Positions 1 through 7,514 of a DNA stretch of 64,000 nt are shown piece by piece. A program made the translations under genes and the position numbers. The notes below the pieces were generated by a model, which saw only the letters and a list, made by a program, of their open reading frames with translations, had not been told where the DNA came from and ran no database searches. The DNA is taken from assembly GCA_963754945.1 (NCBI GenBank), contig CAVWIG010000015.1, positions 32,001 through 96,000 on the forward strand, in the 5' to 3' direction. Numbering within the stretch: the first letter of the stretch is position 1; each line of letters opens with the position of its first letter. This stretch comes from Methanotrichaceae archaeon (GTDB taxonomy: Archaea > Halobacteriota > Methanosarcinia > Methanotrichales > Methanotrichaceae).

Positions 1-393
1 TCTTTTGAGAGCAAGCTCATAGTCGTTTGACAGCGCCTGGGCCGGGCATGTGAGAACGCATGTCGGTGTCTCGTTGGGAGCGCACAGATCGCACTTGTGA
101 GCCAGCTTGTCCGTCCACACAACCCCGAAGGGACATGCAAGCCGGCATAACCCACATCCAGTGCACTTGTCCAGGCTGAAGGAGGTGCGTTCTCCATCCT
201 TGGTCAGGGCACCGCTATAGCAAGCCATGGTGCAGGCCGCCTCTTCGCAGTGGTGACAGAAGAGAGGGACTGATGCCCGGTCTTCACGGATGTGAACATT
301 GACGTGGCCCTTGCCGCCATGAACGCGCTTGCAAGCCACCTCACAAGAACGGCAGCCTATGCACCGGTTGATATCTACGTAGACCCGCATCAT
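1..393 (-). CDS. 4Fe-4S dicluster (HycB/CooF-like) electron-transfer protein, runs off the window edge
   Basis: Manual translation from ATG at 393: MMRVYVDINRCIGCRSCEVAC...CHHCEEAACTMAC...CTGCGLCRLACP...KCDLC...CVLTCP, i.e. four 4Fe-4S motifs. GGGAGG SD upstream. Starts directly after the fdh stop. Not in the ORF track. Confidence 0.9.
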   Translation of the reverse strand, partial: MMRVYVDINRCIGCRSCEVACKRVHGGKGHVNVHIREDRASVPLFCHHCEEAACTMACYSGALTKDGERTSFSLDKCTGCGLCRLACPFGVVWTDKLAHKCDLCAPNETPTCVLTCPAQALSNDYELALKR

Positions 394-2430
394 CTAATCC
401 CTCCCGGATATCTTGCAGGCAGCCACCTTGAACTCAGGGATCTTGGCCTCCGCGTCCCTTGCGTCTGTGGTGAGGAGGTTTGTTCCTGGATAGTGGAAGG
501 GCATGAAAACCACTCCCTGCTTTACGCTGTCCGTCACCCTGGCCAACGCACTCGTCTTCCCACGTTCTGTTGCTACCTCAACGCTATCGCCGTCTTTTAT
601 CCCAAGTGGAGCTGCGTCCACTGGGTTTATCTCAACAAAGAGGTTCGGCGCTCGTTCCATCAGCGACGGGCTCCGTCGTGTCATGGAACCGGCATTGAAG
701 TGTACGGCGATTCTGCCCGTAGTCAGGATGAGCGGATACTCGGTCCCTGTGTCCTCGGCTGCAGGCCTGTACTGGACTGGGGCTATCAACGCCCGACCGT
801 CCTGCAGTTTGAAGCCCGCAGAGTGCAGAATGGGAGTGCCAGGATGGTCCGTGCTCGGGCACGGCCAGATGAGACCTCCAATTCCCAGGCGTTCCCGAGT
901 TATTCCTTTGTAGGTCGGAACTAGTTTGTTGATCTCTGCCAGAACGGCAGCAGCATCTGGATAATCGAAATTCAGGCCCATGCTTTTTGCTACCATGCAA
1001 ACGATCTCCAGATCGCTCTTGGCCTCTCCCGGAGGTTCTATGGCACGGTTGGACCACTGGACTCTCCTTTCCGTGGAGGTATAGGTCCCCTCCTTCTCGG
1101 CCCACGAGGCTGCAGGGAGAACTACATTGGCGAGCCGGGCTGTAGCTGTCATGAATATATCCTGAACCACCAGGAAGTCCAAATTCTCAAGACAGTCCTT
1201 TATGTGGGAACTATACGGATCGGAATTAGCTGGGTCCTCGCCCACGATGTACATGGCCTTGAGCTGACCCTCGCAAGCCGCATCCATCATCTCTGTGGCA
1301 GCTAAGCCTCGGCCTACTGGAAGCAAGGTGGTGCCCCAGGCCTGGCCAAAGAACTTCGCAGTCTCGGGATCGTCGGACTTTCTGTAACCGGGATAGAACT
1401 CAGCCAGAGCGCCCATGTCACAGGCTCCCTGGACGTTGTTATGGCCACGCAGAGGAAGAACGCCCGTGCCCTCCTTCCCGATCTGGCCGGAGATCAGAGC
1501 AAGGTTGGCGACGGATTGGACGTTGTCCGTACCGGAGGTATGCTGGGTTATTCCCATGGAGTAGACGATCGCCGATGCCGGGGATTGGGCATACATCTTT
1601 GCAGCCTTGATTATATCCTTTACAGGGACTCCGGTTATATCTGCAGCTCTCTCTGGTGTGTAGTCCTTTACCGCTTCGGCTAGGTCCTCGAAACCCCTGG
1701 TACTCTTGGATATGAAGGCTTTATCGACGAGGTTCTCGTCTATGATCACCTTCATCATGGCGTTCAGAAGGGCCACATCGGTTCCTGGCTTGAGCTGCAG
1801 GAAAAGATCTGCCAACCAGGCGGTGTGAGTCAGCCTGGGATCGGCTACGATCACCTGGGCTCCCGAGTCCTTAGCCCTGTGAATCCATCGGGACAGGATT
1901 GCGTGGTTCTCAGCCAGGTTGGACCCTATGATGAATATGCATTTGGAGTTGGCCAGATCGGAGATGGGATTGGTCATTCCAGCCGCTCCCAGGGTTCTGT
2001 TCAAACCGACTACGGAGGGTGCGTGGCAGAGACGTGCGCAATTGTCCACATTTCTGGACCCGAGTGTCCGGGCCAGCTTCTGGATAAGGTAGTTTTCCTC
2101 GTTGGTGCACTTCGATGAGGAGAGGAAACCAACTGAATCGGGTCCACTATTTTTGATGGCCCTGCCCAGGCCTTTGGAGACGAGCTCCAGAGCCTCATCC
2201 CAAGAAATCCTAGTCCACTCGTATCCGTTTCTCTTCATTGGATAGAGCAGCCTATCCGCACTGTAGACGACCTCCAGAGCAGCATTGCCCTTGGGACAGA
2301 GGGACCCTTCGTTGGCTGGATGCTCTGGCATATACTCGATCCCCGTAGCTTGACCCTTCTCGACTGCGACATAAAACCCGCAGCCTGCAGCACAATACGG
2401 ACAGATCGTTGAAACAAGCGATTTCGACAT
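394..2430 (-). CDS. fdhA: Mo/W-bisPGD formate dehydrogenase catalytic subunit (FdhF/FdhA type, Cys ligand)
   Basis: N-terminal CPYCAAGC...C 4Fe-4S motif, NCARLCH active site (Cys-His), LRGHNNVQG, C-terminal IPEFK. Confidence 0.92.
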   Translation of the reverse strand: MSKSLVSTICPYCAAGCGFYVAVEKGQATGIEYMPEHPANEGSLCPKGNAALEVVYSADRLLYPMKRNGYEWTRISWDEALELVSKGLGRAIKNSGPDSVGFLSSSKCTNEENYLIQKLARTLGSRNVDNCARLCHAPSVVGLNRTLGAAGMTNPISDLANSKCIFIIGSNLAENHAILSRWIHRAKDSGAQVIVADPRLTHTAWLADLFLQLKPGTDVALLNAMMKVIIDENLVDKAFISKSTRGFEDLAEAVKDYTPERAADITGVPVKDIIKAAKMYAQSPASAIVYSMGITQHTSGTDNVQSVANLALISGQIGKEGTGVLPLRGHNNVQGACDMGALAEFYPGYRKSDDPETAKFFGQAWGTTLLPVGRGLAATEMMDAACEGQLKAMYIVGEDPANSDPYSSHIKDCLENLDFLVVQDIFMTATARLANVVLPAASWAEKEGTYTSTERRVQWSNRAIEPPGEAKSDLEIVCMVAKSMGLNFDYPDAAAVLAEINKLVPTYKGITRERLGIGGLIWPCPSTDHPGTPILHSAGFKLQDGRALIAPVQYRPAAEDTGTEYPLILTTGRIAVHFNAGSMTRRSPSLMERAPNLFVEINPVDAAPLGIKDGDSVEVATERGKTSALARVTDSVKQGVVFMPFHYPGTNLLTTDARDAEAKIPEFKVAACKISGRD

Positions 2431-2715
2431 CTATCTCCCTTGTGGCGATCTCGTTAAATATGAATTCGAGGCCGTAAGCAAGGCGATCCTTGCATTTGCC
2501 TCTGATGGCTCCTTGGTGACATATCCACTGCAGTGGCAGTGACGTGGTGCTTTTTGCAATGATTTCTGGTTCATGCGAGGTTCGGGACGCGGATTGCGTA
2601 GGATCTCGCAAGCATCCTATCCCTCAAACATGTTCAAAGCTATATCCCTTGCGGGCGCAAGATGCCTTTTTCATAATTTTCTAAATGCTTGCCGGGTGCA
2701 TTTCTCGCCACTCGA

Positions 2716-3219
2716 TCAGGCCCTCGATCTCTGAATCTCGGCTGTTTTGAGGCCGGCGTCCCTGCTGGCAACATCAGCGAGCTGCCCTTCATCCAGGAAG
2801 ATCAGAGTTCCTGTTGGACATGCGTTAACGCAGGCCGGGATCTCAAGGTCCTTGCAGCGATCGCACTTCAGGGCGATTCTCTCTTCCTTTTCCCTGCCGA
2901 CTACGCCGTAGGTGCAGATAGTAGCGCAGACCCAGCAGCCCACGCACTTGTCACGGTCTTTCGTGACGATGCCCGTGACGTCGTCCTTGGATGTGGCACC
3001 CGTCCTGCACACGGCCACACACGGAGCTTCATCGCAGTGGTGGCAGAGTAGGGGCATCCTCTGGCCCCCAATCATCTCAACGTAAAGCCTCTTCCTCGGC
3101 TCCGGCTTATCGGCGAGGGCACCGAAGAGATTCTTGCTGCCCGAGTGCTGCACGGCACAGGCGATCTCACAAGAACGGCATCCCATGCAGCGTTCAGGAC
3201 GGACGAATATCTCCAACAT
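2716..3219 (-). CDS. cooF: CooF-type 4Fe-4S protein
   Basis: CMGCRSCEIAC, CHHCDEAPCVAVC, CVGCWVCATIC, KCDRC...CVNACP; immediately downstream of cooS. Confidence 0.88.
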   Translation of the reverse strand: MLEIFVRPERCMGCRSCEIACAVQHSGSKNLFGALADKPEPRKRLYVEMIGGQRMPLLCHHCDEAPCVAVCRTGATSKDDVTGIVTKDRDKCVGCWVCATICTYGVVGREKEERIALKCDRCKDLEIPACVNACPTGTLIFLDEGQLADVASRDAGLKTAEIQRSRA

Positions 3220-3228
3220 AAGCAGCCC

Positions 3229-5076
3229 TCAAAGCCCCAGCTTTTTGCGCTTGCTCTCGATGTGGTCAATAATCAGCTTCGCAGCCTTGAAGGGGTCCGG
3301 CTCCACGGCAAAGGCTCCACCGGTGACGCCCTTTATCCCCTCAGTCAGCAAGCTTGTCACACCTTGGCTCCCCAAGATCGGTGGAATGGTGCCCAGAACG
3401 GTATAGACTCCTGAAGCCACCACATAAGCACCGATTGACACCGCCTTCTCGCTCATCCACTCCGGAGCCGCAGCCGCGGCTGGAAGGTCGCTGATGTCAC
3501 AACCTAGAGCATCGGCCATGGCAGCGCAGGCTACCATTATCCTGCTGATGTCCACACAAGAGCCCATGTGCAGTACGGGCGGCACTCCGATGGCTTTACA
3601 GACGGTCTTCAGGCCATCGCCGGCCAGATCGGCGGCCTCGGGCAACAGCAGTCCGGCCTTTGCGCAAGCCTGGGCATTGCAGCCAGTAGTGACCACGAGA
3701 ACGTTGTTCTTTATCAGCTCCTTGACGAGGTTAACATGGCCGTAGTCCTGCTTCACTTTTGGATTGTTGCAACCGACGACCGCTGCCACGCCACGGATAG
3801 CTCCACCGGCGACGACGTCCAGCAACGGCTTTAGCGTTCCTCCTAGAGCACCAACGATGGCCTCCACGCTGAAGCCTACAACGGCCTCAGACTTGATGTC
3901 GGGAATATGGACCTTTGCGGGGTCGCGTAGACGGTAGTTTAAGACCGCCGTCTGGACGATCTGCTTGGCAGTCTCAAAGGCGCTCTCCTCCTTGAACTCC
4001 ATATGCGTTGCGCCTGGGAACTTTGCTTTTTGCGATGTAGAGATGAACTTGGTGTGGAAGCAGCCAGCCAGCGCGCCCAGGGCTGGCATGACGCACTGGA
4101 CGTCCACAACCATGGCGTCCACAGCTCCTGTGGCCACCGCAAGCTCCTGTTGGAGGAAGTTGCCGGCGATTGGTACGCCATGGCGCGCTAAGACCTCGTT
4201 CCCGGTACAGCACATGCCGGCCACGTTGATGCCTTTGGCTCCCTGATTCTTGGCTAGGTCTACAAGCTCGGGATCGCTGGCTGCTGCGACTATCATTTCG
4301 GACAGAAGGGGCTCATGACCGTGGACTACGATGTTGACCTTGTCGGCCTCCAGGACTCCCAAGTTGGCCTGGGAGCGGACGGGCGTTGGTGTGCCGAACA
4401 TGACGTCCTGCAGCTCAGTTGCGATCATGGAACCGCCCCAGCCGTCGGCCAAGCTCGTCCGCAGGCCGTGAAGCAGCAGGTTGACGTGATCATTGTCAAC
4501 ACCCATGGTTGTCCTGTGCATGCACTCCACTATCTCTCGATCGATTCCCCTTGGATCAATGCCCAGTTTCTTCCACAGCTCCTGGCGCTTTGCGGGAGCA
4601 CGACGAGTGAACTGGATCGGACCTTCCTGCTTTCCAAACTCTGCCATTACAGCGTTGGCTAGATCGATCTGGGTGGATACCCCGTACTCTTTCATCAGCC
4701 GGTCGAGCTTGGCTTGGTCCTTGACCTGATAGGATGGCGCTTTGCCCTCAGACATCAGCTTGAAAGTATGGGCCACATCCCTCGCGTGGTCCGAGTGGGC
4801 TGAAGCCCCGGCGGCAATAGCTCGCAGAAGGTTACGGGCAACGATGATGTCTGCTGTAGCACCGCATACGCCTTTTGTAGCCGCCTCCCCAAAGGGATCA
4901 ATGCGGCAGGGACCCATGTTGCAGTTGCGGCAGCACAGGCCAAGTTCTCCGAAACCGCATTGTGGTTGCTGCTTTTCTAACCGATCCCATGCGGTTTCCA
5001 GGCCAGCCTTGTGAACGATGGCCAGCATTTCCTGGCTGGCAGGGTCTATTGATCTCTCTTTGATGTTCGTGACCAT
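3229..5076 (-). CDS. cooS: Anaerobic Ni,Fe carbon-monoxide dehydrogenase catalytic subunit
   Basis: QCGFG...CCRNCNMGPC D/B-cluster motifs; C-cluster ligands in HGHEP, GMCCTG, DVQC, VGCNN, TGC, MGSCVD; SEKA. Start placed at ATG 5076. Confidence 0.95.
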   Translation of the reverse strand: MVTNIKERSIDPASQEMLAIVHKAGLETAWDRLEKQQPQCGFGELGLCCRNCNMGPCRIDPFGEAATKGVCGATADIIVARNLLRAIAAGASAHSDHARDVAHTFKLMSEGKAPSYQVKDQAKLDRLMKEYGVSTQIDLANAVMAEFGKQEGPIQFTRRAPAKRQELWKKLGIDPRGIDREIVECMHRTTMGVDNDHVNLLLHGLRTSLADGWGGSMIATELQDVMFGTPTPVRSQANLGVLEADKVNIVVHGHEPLLSEMIVAAASDPELVDLAKNQGAKGINVAGMCCTGNEVLARHGVPIAGNFLQQELAVATGAVDAMVVDVQCVMPALGALAGCFHTKFISTSQKAKFPGATHMEFKEESAFETAKQIVQTAVLNYRLRDPAKVHIPDIKSEAVVGFSVEAIVGALGGTLKPLLDVVAGGAIRGVAAVVGCNNPKVKQDYGHVNLVKELIKNNVLVVTTGCNAQACAKAGLLLPEAADLAGDGLKTVCKAIGVPPVLHMGSCVDISRIMVACAAMADALGCDISDLPAAAAAPEWMSEKAVSIGAYVVASGVYTVLGTIPPILGSQGVTSLLTEGIKGVTGGAFAVEPDPFKAAKLIIDHIESKRKKLGL

Positions 5077-5504
5077 GAATAATCCTCTTTTTATAATCAT
5101 TGTTGTTTATAAACAGTGCCTCTTCCGACCTGAAACTACTTAAGCTTATCTTTATTATTTTAAAATATTTATCTTGATTTGATATTGCACAATAACTTAA
5201 AAATTTTGTTACTCATCATGATCATACAATTATCTAAATTAAATGCGATCTGGCCTTTTTTGACGATTGTAAATAAGAGCTTTTTCTAGCTAAATTTTCT
5301 CGCTAATATTTCTACCAGATATTTAAACTTGATTCATAAACTTCCAAATTTTTGATTAATTTTCTGCGTAATTCCGCGACCACATCATTCAGACAACTCT
5401 TGGCAATTATCTCTTGATGAGTCGAAACTGAAGTGACGATCCAGTTAGCAAAGCTTCGCTCAATTGATAGAGACTCTCAATGACCTGATAGACACAAGGA
5501 TTGA

Positions 5505-7514
5505 CTATTTTTTTTTCATCCAGGGCGGTGTCGGTATTTTCAGAGATCGAAATCTATTTCCGTTATTGGTCTGCTTTTTTTTGGATTCTTGGGACTGGGC
5601 TGAGACTTTTGTGTAGATGTCATTTTTGCTATTGTCTCCTGCGTGATTCTGAGATATTTCCGTCCCATTGTTAAACGACGACATGGCTGAGAGAGATGAT
5701 CTTCCTTGGCTTTGTCCAGTTTTTGTGAGATTGTTACTGAGGTCGTTGTTAGGTTCTTGGATTTTGTTGGAGATGTTATTTTTGGCTAGTACAACTCTTG
5801 TGCTCGATTCAGAGGAGTTCGAGTGGCCTTTAAGGTTTCCAAAACCTTCATTGATCTTGTTTGATCCGACATTTGATGATTTATCTGGCGTATTATTGAC
5901 TGAAACATTGTCGTCGCGCACCTTTGATACAATGGGGGTTAGTTTGCCCCTTTTATCCTGCACAGAAAGCATCGATTCGTTCTGGGCTTTTTTATCCTTG
6001 ATTGCGCTGTCGTTTGTCGTTAGGTTGAAGGTACCATTCTCTATGTAAGTTTTATCGTTTATAAGATCCGATTCTTTGGGGGCTGATACTGCCGAACCAT
6101 TTTTGTCAGAAGCGATTCTTCCTTCTGTCTCTGTAGGTTTCGAAGTCGTAGAACTCGTCTGAGGCCGCGCAGAATCTGTAGAACCAGAAGAGGGGTTATC
6201 AAATGAAAGGTTGGGTCTCCCTGAGATAAAAAGATAAGAGCTGCTTCTACTCTCATTACCTCCAAGTTTCGCGTCAGGAAGAACATTTGAGATGTTACTG
6301 GTCGGATAAGAGTCCCTCTGCTGTTCATTCCCTTTTGATTCATTTGTCAGCGATTCAACTATCTGTGAATCGTTCATCCGAGTCTCATTCATCCGAGATT
6401 CAATGATCTGGGTTTGATTTATCCGGGATTCAGTCAATTGAGATTCGTTTGTCTGAGATTCGTCTATTCGGGTATCGTTTACTCGGGATTCATTAGTCCG
6501 GGTTTCATTCATCCGAGTCTCGTTTATCGGGGATTCGCTGACCTGGGTTTGATTTATCCGGGATTCAGTCAATTGAGATTCGTTTGTCTGAGATTCGTCT
6601 ATTCGGGTATCGTTTACTCGGGATTCATTAGTCCCGGTTTCATTCATCTGAGTCTCGTTTATCGGGGATTCGCTGACCTGGGTTTGATTTATCCGGGATT
6701 CAGTCAATTGAGATTCGTTTGTCTGAGATTCGTCTATTTGGGTATCGTTTACCCGGGATTCATTAGTCCGGGTTTCATTCATCCGAATCTCGTTTGTCTG
6801 AGATTCGTCCACTTGGGTATCGTTTACCCGAGATTCGTTAATCTGGGTTTCGTTCATCTGAAAATCGTTATTCTGAGGTTGATTTCCACCAATTGCGTTA
6901 AATGGAACTGCATCAGCTCTGTCAGCCTGATATGCAACACTTTTATCTTTCGAAGGGTTATATTCCCAGCACTTAACAGGCGTATCTGAGCCGCTATCGA
7001 GATCTGAGCTTCCTATTATGGGAGCGCTGGCTTTCTTTGCTGATTGAACAAGCCTTTGGGCTCGCGATGAGTTTGATGAGTTCAAAGATATCTGCTGATG
7101 GTTGAGATTTTTCATGCTGGCATTAGTCTCTTTTGCCTTAGGGACCCTATTCTTAGCCATTAGAGCCCGGGCTTTATAGCTATTGACTGCTGCTTTTTTG
7201 GCTGCCGCGCTGTTTAGAGAATTTATTCCCAGAATAGATTTGAATTGATCCATCAGCCTTATGCCATTTTCCTGCCAGGTCTTTATCGCCTTTATGCTTC
7301 CTTGAGGGACCTTGAGATCGAATCCGGTGAATGGTCCCTTGTGGGATGTGTTTGATTTGAAAGAGAGGATATCGGATAACAGGAAAGCACCCATGGCGAT
7401 CAAACAGATCAGCGCCAAGGCCAGGAAAATGTTAAACATCTTCGGATGTTTCTGAATTAAGCCTTTGCTAACTGAGCTATATATGGTGCTTCTTGTTTTC
7501 TCCGGATCCCTCAT
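5505..7514 (-). CDS. Membrane-anchored low-complexity (N/E/S/T/Q) repeat protein, putative surface glycoprotein
   Basis: One hydrophobic N-terminal segment (IFLALALICLIAMGAFLL), a pentapeptide-periodic central region, many NxS/T sequons. Confidence 0.7.
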   Translation of the reverse strand: MRDPEKTRSTIYSSVSKGLIQKHPKMFNIFLALALICLIAMGAFLLSDILSFKSNTSHKGPFTGFDLKVPQGSIKAIKTWQENGIRLMDQFKSILGINSLNSAAAKKAAVNSYKARALMAKNRVPKAKETNASMKNLNHQQISLNSSNSSRAQRLVQSAKKASAPIIGSSDLDSGSDTPVKCWEYNPSKDKSVAYQADRADAVPFNAIGGNQPQNNDFQMNETQINESRVNDTQVDESQTNEIRMNETRTNESRVNDTQIDESQTNESQLTESRINQTQVSESPINETQMNETGTNESRVNDTRIDESQTNESQLTESRINQTQVSESPINETRMNETRTNESRVNDTRIDESQTNESQLTESRINQTQIIESRMNETRMNDSQIVESLTNESKGNEQQRDSYPTSNISNVLPDAKLGGNESRSSSYLFISGRPNLSFDNPSSGSTDSARPQTSSTTSKPTETEGRIASDKNGSAVSAPKESDLINDKTYIENGTFNLTTNDSAIKDKKAQNESMLSVQDKRGKLTPIVSKVRDDNVSVNNTPDKSSNVGSNKINEGFGNLKGHSNSSESSTRVVLAKNNISNKIQEPNNDLSNNLTKTGQSQGRSSLSAMSSFNNGTEISQNHAGDNSKNDIYTKVSAQSQESKKKQTNNGNRFRSLKIPTPPWMKKK
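6345..6860. repeat. Coding tandem repeat: 15-bp units nested in about three near-identical 135-bp (45-aa) higher-order units
   Basis: atccgggattcagtcaattgagattc recurs at 6421, 6556 and 6691 (period 135). Confidence 0.9.

Follow-up and report, generated by a model that had tools for sequence, protein, structure and literature searches.

In acetogens, HDCR (hydrogen-dependent CO2 reductase) is built from FdhF, two HycB-type polyferredoxins and a hydrogenase. In the formate hydrogenlyase, HycF joins HycB to the hydrogenase, and the FdhF of E. coli uses selenocysteine; the FdhA of methanogens normally pairs with the F420-binding FdhB. Here, we analysed a cluster of five co-oriented genes, cooS, cooF, fdhA, FeS1 and FeS2, which lies at and just beyond the start of a 64,000-nt stretch of DNA (the window, G000:C15:32001-96000; G000 is the genome carrying the window, C stands for contig, and g1-g16 are genera). 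The host, from peat, belongs to the Methanotrichaceae, an acetate-consuming family of a methanogen lineage, as a preliminary description of the window had supposed. The cluster joins the genes of a carbon monoxide dehydrogenase (CODH) to those of a formate dehydrogenase (FDH) arm, and with moderate confidence we read the five genes as two soluble modules, wired by iron-sulfur (FeS) proteins, that may cooperate as a CO/CO2-formate redox system. According to excerpts from PMC9166738, the HDCR can draw electrons from CO via CODH plus ferredoxin, no natural enzyme is known that couples CO oxidation directly to formate production, and an engineered CODH-FeS-FDH fusion (CFOR) does couple the two. 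Our own search, which did not extend to the CODH genomic-context supplements (PMC13056359), found no published description of a cooS-cooF-fdhA-FeS operon or of a natural CO:formate enzyme, and the terms "formate dehydrogenase", "fdh" and "cooS" do not occur in the text of Zhu et al. 2012 (PMC3349665). We read the system of the window as a variant of known modular FeS-wired enzymes.

The elements of the locus, from open reading frame (ORF) calls, are given below in window positions; a coordinate in L004, the DNA extending past window position 1, equals the window position plus 15000.

cooS, 3229-5100, minus strand: 623 aa, monofunctional Ni,Fe CO dehydrogenase catalytic subunit
cooF, 2716-3219, minus strand: 167 aa, starting 9 nt after cooS, 4x[4Fe-4S] HycB-type electron-transfer subunit
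cooF-fdhA spacer, 2431-2715, minus strand: 285 bp
fdhA, 394-2430, minus strand: 678 aa, Cys-type Mo/W-bis-pyranopterin guanine dinucleotide formate dehydrogenase catalytic subunit of the "type A" lineage
FeS1, 1..393 in the window, complete at G000:C15:31953-32393 (L004:14953-15393), minus strand: 146 aa, HycB-like 4x[4Fe-4S] protein
FeS2, G000:C15:31540-31956 (L004:14540-14956), wholly outside the window, minus strand: 138 aa, HycF-like 2x[4Fe-4S] protein
AT-rich stretch upstream of cooS, 5101..5504, minus strand: several TATA-like runs, GC content 0.38-0.45

The fdhA stop is immediately followed by the start of FeS1 (393), whose final 47 nt fall outside the window, ahead of position 1; FeS1 overlaps FeS2 by 4 nt. 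The content, coordinates and minus-strand orientation of the four genes first described were recovered; for cooS, the end placed earlier at 5076 corresponds to an alternative start (Met9), and the longer ORF reaches 5100. Inspection past position 1 completed FeS1 and added FeS2, and no fdhB, hdr or hydrogenase genes were found downstream of the cluster or in the flanks inspected. The domain search detected only molybdopterin domains in FdhA, in line with the earlier view of an FDH without an NAD or F420 module, and no FrhB_FdhB domain in the cluster. No NAD, F420, flavin or membrane-anchor domains were found in either module (CooS-CooF or FdhA-FeS1-FeS2).

The preliminary description had named the HDCR as the closest architecture, and here we revise it: the FdhF-HycB-HycF arm of formate hydrogenlyase fits better, since FeS2 is HycF-like over its full length. 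The E. coli formate hydrogenlyase (7z0s/7z0t) has the same three-part arm of an FdhF-type (1aa6, 519 bits), a HycB-type and a HycF-type protein. There, the arm comes with HycG/HycE and membrane subunits, whereas the window cluster has none of these beside the arm; the place of the hydrogenase genes is occupied by cooS-cooF in the window or by glutamate synthase (GOGAT) genes in relatives, and the window FdhA uses Cys. Like the HDCR (T. kivui, 7qv7; A. woodii), the locus encodes an FdhF-type CO2 reductase that is soluble and has HycB-type polyferredoxins for wiring; against the HDCR FdhF (7qv7_S), FdhA reaches 645 bits with an identical CARLCH motif. The HDCR has two HycB subunits, HycB3 and HycB4; the window has two HycB-type 4x[4Fe-4S] proteins, CooF and FeS1, but one of them is a CooF ortholog and a HycF-type FeS protein is present as well. 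The HDCR, however, contains the [FeFe]-hydrogenase HydA2, whereas no hydrogenase domain occurs in the five genes or their neighbours, and it lacks a HycF-like third FeS protein, which the window cluster has in FeS2. The filament of the HDCR is built from HycB subunits. The system is thus not an HDCR but, by analogy, may work like one in principle.

Three further systems were compared with the locus. Rhodospirillum rubrum and Carboxydothermus hydrogenoformans have the cooS-cooF pair with a partner enzyme in the cluster (the CooF role being that given in part of PMC9166738), and this partner is a membrane-bound, energy-converting [NiFe]-hydrogenase, whereas the neighbour in the window is an FDH arm; the predicted product is therefore formate rather than H2. 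The CFOR and the native Fdh3ABC of Thermococcus onnurineus are described in excerpts of the same source: the CFOR links CodhAB (equivalent to CooFS) to an FDH whose B subunit is a 4x[4Fe-4S] and whose C subunit is a 2x[4Fe-4S] protein, which is the parts list of the window; the CFOR required an engineered FeS-protein fusion, whereas the window genes are separate and natural and their complex is putative. In the F420-dependent FdhAB of methanogens FdhB is encoded beside FdhA, whereas the window cluster has no FdhB and the FdhA-FdhB pair of G000 lies on C27.

CooS scored 748.5 bits against TIGR01702 (cut-off 478) and 613 bits against PF03063, and its best solved relative was 6t7j_B (800.8 bits). 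It carries the D/B-cluster motif C-x7-CC-x2-C-x4-C-x13-C as well as HGHEP, MCCTGNE, VQCVMP, GCNNP, TGCNA and GSCVD, which by CODH-II numbering presumably supply the B-, C- and D-cluster ligands. CooF matched Fer4_11 and other Fer4 families and has four Cys motifs, with 16 Cys invariant among 23 orthologs; its matches in the PDB were 9mqx_E (2.3e-24), HDCR HycB4 (1.2e-22) and HycB3 (1e-17). In all 27 cooS loci examined (27/27) cooF follows cooS, the G024 copy being split. Judged by the equivalog score, the motifs and the 16 invariant Cys, CooS-CooF is predicted to be a monofunctional Ni,Fe-CODH with its CooF, and the earlier reading of a CooS with all cluster-ligand motifs and a 4x[4Fe-4S] CooF is borne out. 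CooS homologs of 48-49% identity also occur in family f9 genomes (e.g. G124:C1:48561-50450), mostly inside frames of 1378-1418 aa, which suggests that CooS is fused there to another large domain.

FdhA scored 849.5 bits against TIGR01591 (cut-off 666) and reached neither cut-off of the nitrate reductase models (NasC, 553 bits against 1100; NasA, 364 bits against 1000). Among solved structures, its scores were 707 bits for 9t1s_L, 645 for the HDCR FdhF 7qv7_S, 519 for E. coli FdhH 1aa6 and 376 for Nap 2jim. CARLCH (Cys136-His137) and PLRGHNNVQG (Arg329) of FdhA align with CARLCH and PLRGQNNVQG of 7qv7_S, and we take these Cys-His and Arg motifs to be FDH determinants. The earlier description of FdhA as a Cys-type FDH stands.

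FeS1 has 16 Cys that are invariant among 20 orthologs, and its matches in the PDB were 9mqx_E (2e-20), HDCR HycB4 (1.2e-19) and E. coli HycB 7z0s_B (2.2e-19); the matches of CooF and FeS1 to HDCR HycB4/HycB3 together span 1e-16 to 1e-23. On the FDH3_beta model FeS1 scored 46 bits against a cut-off of 240. FeS2 consists of a 2x[4Fe-4S] core and an invariant C-terminal CxxC...CPxCR(R/Q) tail, and it matched HycF by sequence at 2.3e-5. The top Foldseek matches of its AlphaFold2 model (pLDDT 89.5) were E. coli HycF 7z0t_F and 7z0s_F (E values of 4e-9 and 2.5e-8), and the fold match is full-length (TM score 0.70-0.72 over 132-136 columns). Because FeS2 matches HycF over its full length, FdhA-FeS1-FeS2 can be equated with an FdhF-HycB-HycF arm as in formate hydrogenlyase. 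A complex prediction for FeS1 and FeS2 with CooF scored 0.57, a value that a control matched (0.60). In a variant form, the type B FeS2 of genera g8 and g6 (L032, L033, L036) has lost most Cys of the second ferredoxin motif and one of the first, which leaves ligands for a single [4Fe-4S] cluster; the CxxC...CPxCR(R/Q) tail is still invariant there.

The survey of cooS-cooF-fdhA synteny showed an arrangement that is conserved across two families, which supports the preliminary description. CooS orthologs (70-97% identity) were found in 93 of the 105 family genomes. Of these 93 CooS-bearing Methanotrichaceae genomes, at least 24, from 7 of the 16 genera, have cooS-(cooF)-fdhA side by side and in the same direction; the adjacency counts were cross-matched by eye from the CooS and FdhA match tables, and contig ends hide some loci. 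The FdhA at cooSF is of type A in four genomes (G000, G001, G002 and G012), and a type B FdhA (56-62% identical) stands behind cooSF in 20 genomes from genera g13, g9, g8, g5 and g6. The spacing between cooF and fdhA ranges from overlapping to about 60 nt for type B and from 270 to 376 nt for type A. FeS1 follows fdhA in all 12 family carriers examined (12/12, by tblastn on fetched loci) and FeS2 is present in 11 of the 12, the exception being G007. In the 400-genome sample of the phylum, 5 of the 16 sampled Methanosarcinaceae genomes with a CooS ortholog have the adjacency, and the three Methanosarcinaceae loci fetched (3/3) carry all five genes. With at least 24 occurrences among the 93 family genomes and five in Methanosarcinaceae, the adjacency is more than chance. 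Outside the Methanosarcinia it was not found among the genomes searched; this absence holds for those genomes only, since scoring was limited to the top two FdhA matches of each. Remnants of the cluster were also seen. In G015:C5:4497-7383 (L045), cooS carries an in-frame TAA, fdhA is reduced to the C-terminal ~130 residues, and FeS1 and FeS2 are intact; cooS and fdhA thus decay jointly in this genome. In G023:C153:1986-5183, the fdhA next to cooSF has lost an internal part, so that residues 1-85 run straight into 503-650.

The repeated re-association of cooSF with an FDH arm argues for a functional CO/formate coupling. In the mechanism that we propose, CooS would oxidise CO and CooF would receive the electrons, which would then pass through the HycF-like FeS2 and the HycB-like FeS1 to the Cys-type FdhA, where CO2 would be reduced to formate; the net reaction, CO + H2O <-> formate + H+, would be reversible. 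With no pyridine-nucleotide, flavin, F420 or membrane domain in either module, FeS proteins should be the only exit for electrons. CooF may touch the HycF-like or the HycB-like protein rather than being linked through free ferredoxin, and flow from CO towards formate is the presumed direction. Of the direct-wired CO-to-formate complex in the preliminary description, the gene content and the synteny hold, and the wiring itself stays putative.

The E0' of CO2/formate is about -430 mV. Taken with an E0' of -520 mV for CO2/CO (given in part of PMC4652020), this makes the step from CO to formate worth roughly -17 kJ/mol under standard conditions by simple arithmetic. Excerpts from PMC4652020 also state that CO comes to equilibrium near 0.16 Pa in a culture of Methanothrix and that the electrons from CO oxidation require a sink besides proton reduction. 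Candidate roles of the system would be to scavenge the CO leaked by the acetyl-CoA decarbonylase and store its electrons as formate, or to provide formate for biosynthesis. Methanothrix-type archaea are major methane producers from acetate, and FDH activity occurs in Methanothrix-type organisms that are unable to grow on formate, which is unexplained. The near-equilibrium handling of trace CO in Methanothrix, as part of PMC4652020 presents it, is also unexplained, and the cooS-cooF-fdhA-hycB-hycF operon offers a testable link between the two. CO leaked from acetyl-CoA cleavage could become formate, which might store electrons, act as a carrier between species or supply a C1 unit for biosynthesis. 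The conversion of CO to formate is moreover a bioengineering target that, in the excerpts from PMC9166738, has so far been reached by protein fusion, and a natural version would be a template.

A stronger version of this proposal is possible, and we put it forward only tentatively: the Methanosarcinia may own a natural direct-wired CO:formate oxidoreductase of the composition CooS2-CooF-HycF-like-HycB-like-FdhA, in which the HycF-like protein would be a general docking adaptor that connects the same FDH arm to different partners. In the window and at the type B loci this partner would be CODH; most relatives would use glutamate synthase instead. If the HycF-like protein is such an adaptor, the lineage would have been able to rebuild a CODH-FDH operon from the GOGAT paralog after losing the original. 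One FDH arm with two different partner enzymes also bears on the evolution of modular FeS-wired complexes.

Several observations weigh against a dedicated CO/formate coupling. At the thresholds used, at least 60 CooS-bearing family genomes have no adjacent fdhA, and none was found beside cooS in g2 (0/50), g4, g15, g16 and g12; since many relatives carry cooS-cooF alone, CooS-CooF must work without the FDH arm. The type A arm, in turn, is clearly not dedicated to CODH. Of the 24 type A loci in the species collection, 21 have GOGAT genes directly upstream, mostly the full glnA-gltA-gltB-gltC set, so that the commonest partner of the window's arm is GOGAT. These GOGAT-linked loci lie in other genomes (L053-L069, L071, L072, L074 and L077), and one of them, L071, has only glnA and gltC fragments; among the three exceptions, two from the genus of the window stand behind cooS-cooF and one starts at fdhA. 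The gap between the GOGAT genes and the arm is roughly 12-90 nt. Compared with this operon of glutamine synthetase (GS), GOGAT and FDH arm, the window has an orthologous FdhA-FeS1-FeS2 arm (67-80% identity), which stands behind cooS-cooF after a 285-bp spacer, whereas the other stands close behind glnA-gltA-gltB-gltC. Gene order at the 21 loci suggests a formate-driven archaeal glutamate synthase, and we found no description of such a GS-GOGAT-FDH-arm operon in print.

The spacer also speaks against coupling. In G000, G001, G002 and G012 it measures 270-376 bp and carries a palindrome/TATA-like element, compared with at most 60 nt in type B loci. The element in the window is a block of ~34 nt at ~2628-2661, in which the palindrome CTTGCG-CC-CGCAAG is followed by the TATA-like GGATATAGC. 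In the alignment, this block is conserved among the four genomes, and the remaining spacer is divergent, or absent in G012. The block may be the operator plus promoter of the FDH arm, and since the 285-bp spacer carries a conserved palindrome and a TATA-like element, separate transcription of the arm is possible. The earlier caveat on co-transcription thus gained a second part: the gap was confirmed at 2431-2715, and a conserved promoter-like block within it permits a separate transcript. Contigs from RNA libraries of four peat runs, 93-99% alike, were found on cooS, cooF, fdhA and FeS1; these runs contain 13-20% of the sampled words, with contigs on 19-27 of 30 bins (all genes included), and the contigs record presence in RNA libraries only, revealing neither transcript ends nor levels. 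Across the four peat libraries, no contig bridges the spacer in its G000 form. One contig each in runs X2 and X4 joins 2451 to 2612, with a short side of only 25 letters, which suggests relatives whose spacer differs or is shorter. The peat contigs depart from the window exactly between 2451 and ~2607-2612; strains therefore differ in the variable part of the spacer and share both of its ends.

Other functions for the spacer were considered and rejected. The 16-nt core of the element occurs once in the window and has one exact copy in the genome, along with two look-alikes at two mismatches, and a repeated regulon motif was discarded on this single exact copy. No Rfam match was found in window 1-5600 at E<=1, which disposes of a riboswitch or known RNA in the spacer. 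A scan for bacterial sigma-70 promoters and terminators does not apply to archaea and gave counts close to those from shuffled sequences.

The alternative that best survives is that the cluster encodes two autonomous enzymes without functional coupling, in which a portable formate:ferredoxin (or formate:GOGAT) arm landed behind cooSF by rearrangement with its own promoter in the spacer, and CooS-CooF reduces ferredoxin. We consider this explanation unlikely, though it has to be taken seriously. It agrees with the type A arm standing directly behind glnA-gltABC in 21 of 24 loci at gaps of roughly 12-90 nt, with the long spacer and its conserved palindrome/TATA-like block, with cooSF standing alone in most family genomes, and with the mobile elements found close by, which in G000 are a downstream IS transposase and integrase and in G001 an ORF with a transposase domain upstream of cooS. 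However, in 20 family genomes and in Methanosarcinaceae cooSF is followed at tight spacing by a paralogous arm, and relocation to the same position and in the same orientation in the g1/g11/g14 group becomes a coincidence under this explanation. The arrangement also persists in at least four genomes, from two genera, whose FdhA proteins are 76-97% identical, and cooS and fdhA decay together in G015.

How the type A arm came to stand behind cooSF can be read from two trees. In the FdhA tree (23 rows, quick LG+G4), the g1 and g11 arms are nested in the GOGAT-linked type A clade with a Shimodaira-Hasegawa-like approximate likelihood-ratio test (SH-aLRT) support of 98. In the CooS tree, rooted on Methanosarcinaceae, the basal lineages carry type B and a derived clade has an SH-aLRT of 96; this clade splits into lineages with cooSF alone and a group with cooSF plus type A (g1, g11 and the g14 remnant) at an SH-aLRT of 83. 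The contig of g10 ends just after cooF, and the placement of g10 on this tree is not settled. If the CooS tree is taken to represent the species tree, the simplest reading is that the ancestor had both arms, that the derived clade lost type B, and that one sub-lineage moved the GOGAT arm behind cooSF; in the genus of the window, the GOGAT-type paralog was thus probably relocated behind cooSF after loss of the original arm. G000 itself has a GS-GOGAT locus (G000:C22:23358-28451) without an FDH arm, in which glnA is split into two ORFs, and it has a single FeS1/FeS2 pair in its genome. In G001, G002, G012, G015 and G023, gltB lies on contigs without fdhA, several of which end close by. A further arrangement was seen in several g8 genomes (G050:C7, G046:C66, G045:C2 and G052:C1), where a second FdhA, 60-62% identical, follows ~0.9-1.3 kb after the type A fdhA, right behind the two FeS genes; such an arm would have two catalytic subunits.

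Far less probable is a model, patterned on formate hydrogenlyase or the CODH-Ech complexes, in which the wire would end at a membrane-bound complex I-like module or a hydrogenase with genes at another site, and the HycF-like subunit would attach the FDH arm, and perhaps CooF, to it. FeS2 is of the HycF/NuoI type, whose known members bind a hydrogenase or the complex I Q-module, and [NiFe]-hydrogenase subunit genes with hypD/E/F and a HycI-type protease are present on C42 and C26. However, these hydrogenase loci are on other contigs and have their own small subunit, no such genes stand beside the cluster in any locus examined, and the conserved neighbours of the arm, cooSF or GOGAT, are both soluble. 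It is most improbable of all that "FdhA" is a ferredoxin-dependent assimilatory nitrate reductase (Nas/NarB type) whose adjacency to CODH is unrelated to formate, an identity that would explain the usual location beside GS-GOGAT. In its favour, relatives have nitrogen-assimilation genes as conserved neighbours, the NasC and NasA models match FdhA secondarily, and Nas-type enzymes were recently proposed in Methanococcales (in an excerpt of PMC13381448), but FdhA passes TIGR01591 (849.5 against 666) with NasC and NasA far below their cut-offs, solved FDHs score 519-707 bits compared with 376 for Nap, and the metal-ligand Cys followed by His, together with the Arg of LRG(H/Q)NNVQG, is as in the HDCR FdhF, motifs that we again assume to be determinants.

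In the surroundings of the cluster, the operon ends 3' of FeS2 at convergent PAS/histidine-kinase fragments with an IS transposase between them. This PAS/HisKA/HATPase sensor kinase (L004:12142-14331; G000:C15:29142-31331) is interrupted by an IS4/DDE transposase gene; at the same downstream position G001 has an intact PAS kinase of 977 aa, and in G000 a phage-type integrase lies ~7 kb beyond the split kinase. Upstream of cooS, the stretch 5101..5504 is likely to be the promoter region of the operon. Further upstream lies a 669-aa ORF (window 5505-7514, minus strand) with weak pentapeptide-repeat matches and a GC content of 0.43 compared with 0.56 in the cluster; in G002, a 614-aa ORF without a Pfam match takes the same position. 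The GC content is 0.38-0.45 in the stretch upstream of cooS (5101..5504) and 0.56-0.59 in the cluster. Horizontal transfer was tried as an explanation of the high-GC cluster and rejected, since the gene GC of 0.50-0.59 is within the upper range of the genome and the CooS orthologs follow the family-wide tree. Long ORFs of G000 have a median GC of 0.53, with 19% at 0.56 or above (gltB, 0.573; C5 fdhA, 0.571), and the compositional oddity lies in the low-GC flanks, not in the cluster.

The G000 genome (2.97 Mb, 87.7% complete, GC 0.484) holds further redox genes. The Methanotrichaceae are usually described as making little use of hydrogenases. Two near-identical [NiFe]-hydrogenase loci were found in G000 (G000:C42:621-6288, L136; G000:C26:1-6917, L137), with hypF/hypD/hypE, small and large [NiFe]-hydrogenase subunits and a HycI-type protease; the pair could reflect a real duplication, or else a duplicate due to assembly or strains. 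PF02906 ([FeFe]-hydrogenase) was not found in this 87.7% complete genome. With two [NiFe]-hydrogenase loci and their hyp genes, and a canonical FdhA-FdhB pair on C27, the notion that CODH replaces an absent hydrogenase was abandoned. An FdhA with Fer4_22 and an NAD-binding partner lies on C5, and an FdhA-FdhD pair on C20 (G000:C20:36441-43596; L028 3441-10596), of which FdhA is a 60% identical paralog. Ahead of the C20 FdhA, a fused EtfB/EtfA-like gene and one like ETF-QO lie on the opposite strand, and in G012 an FmdE-like gene precedes the corresponding FdhA paralog.

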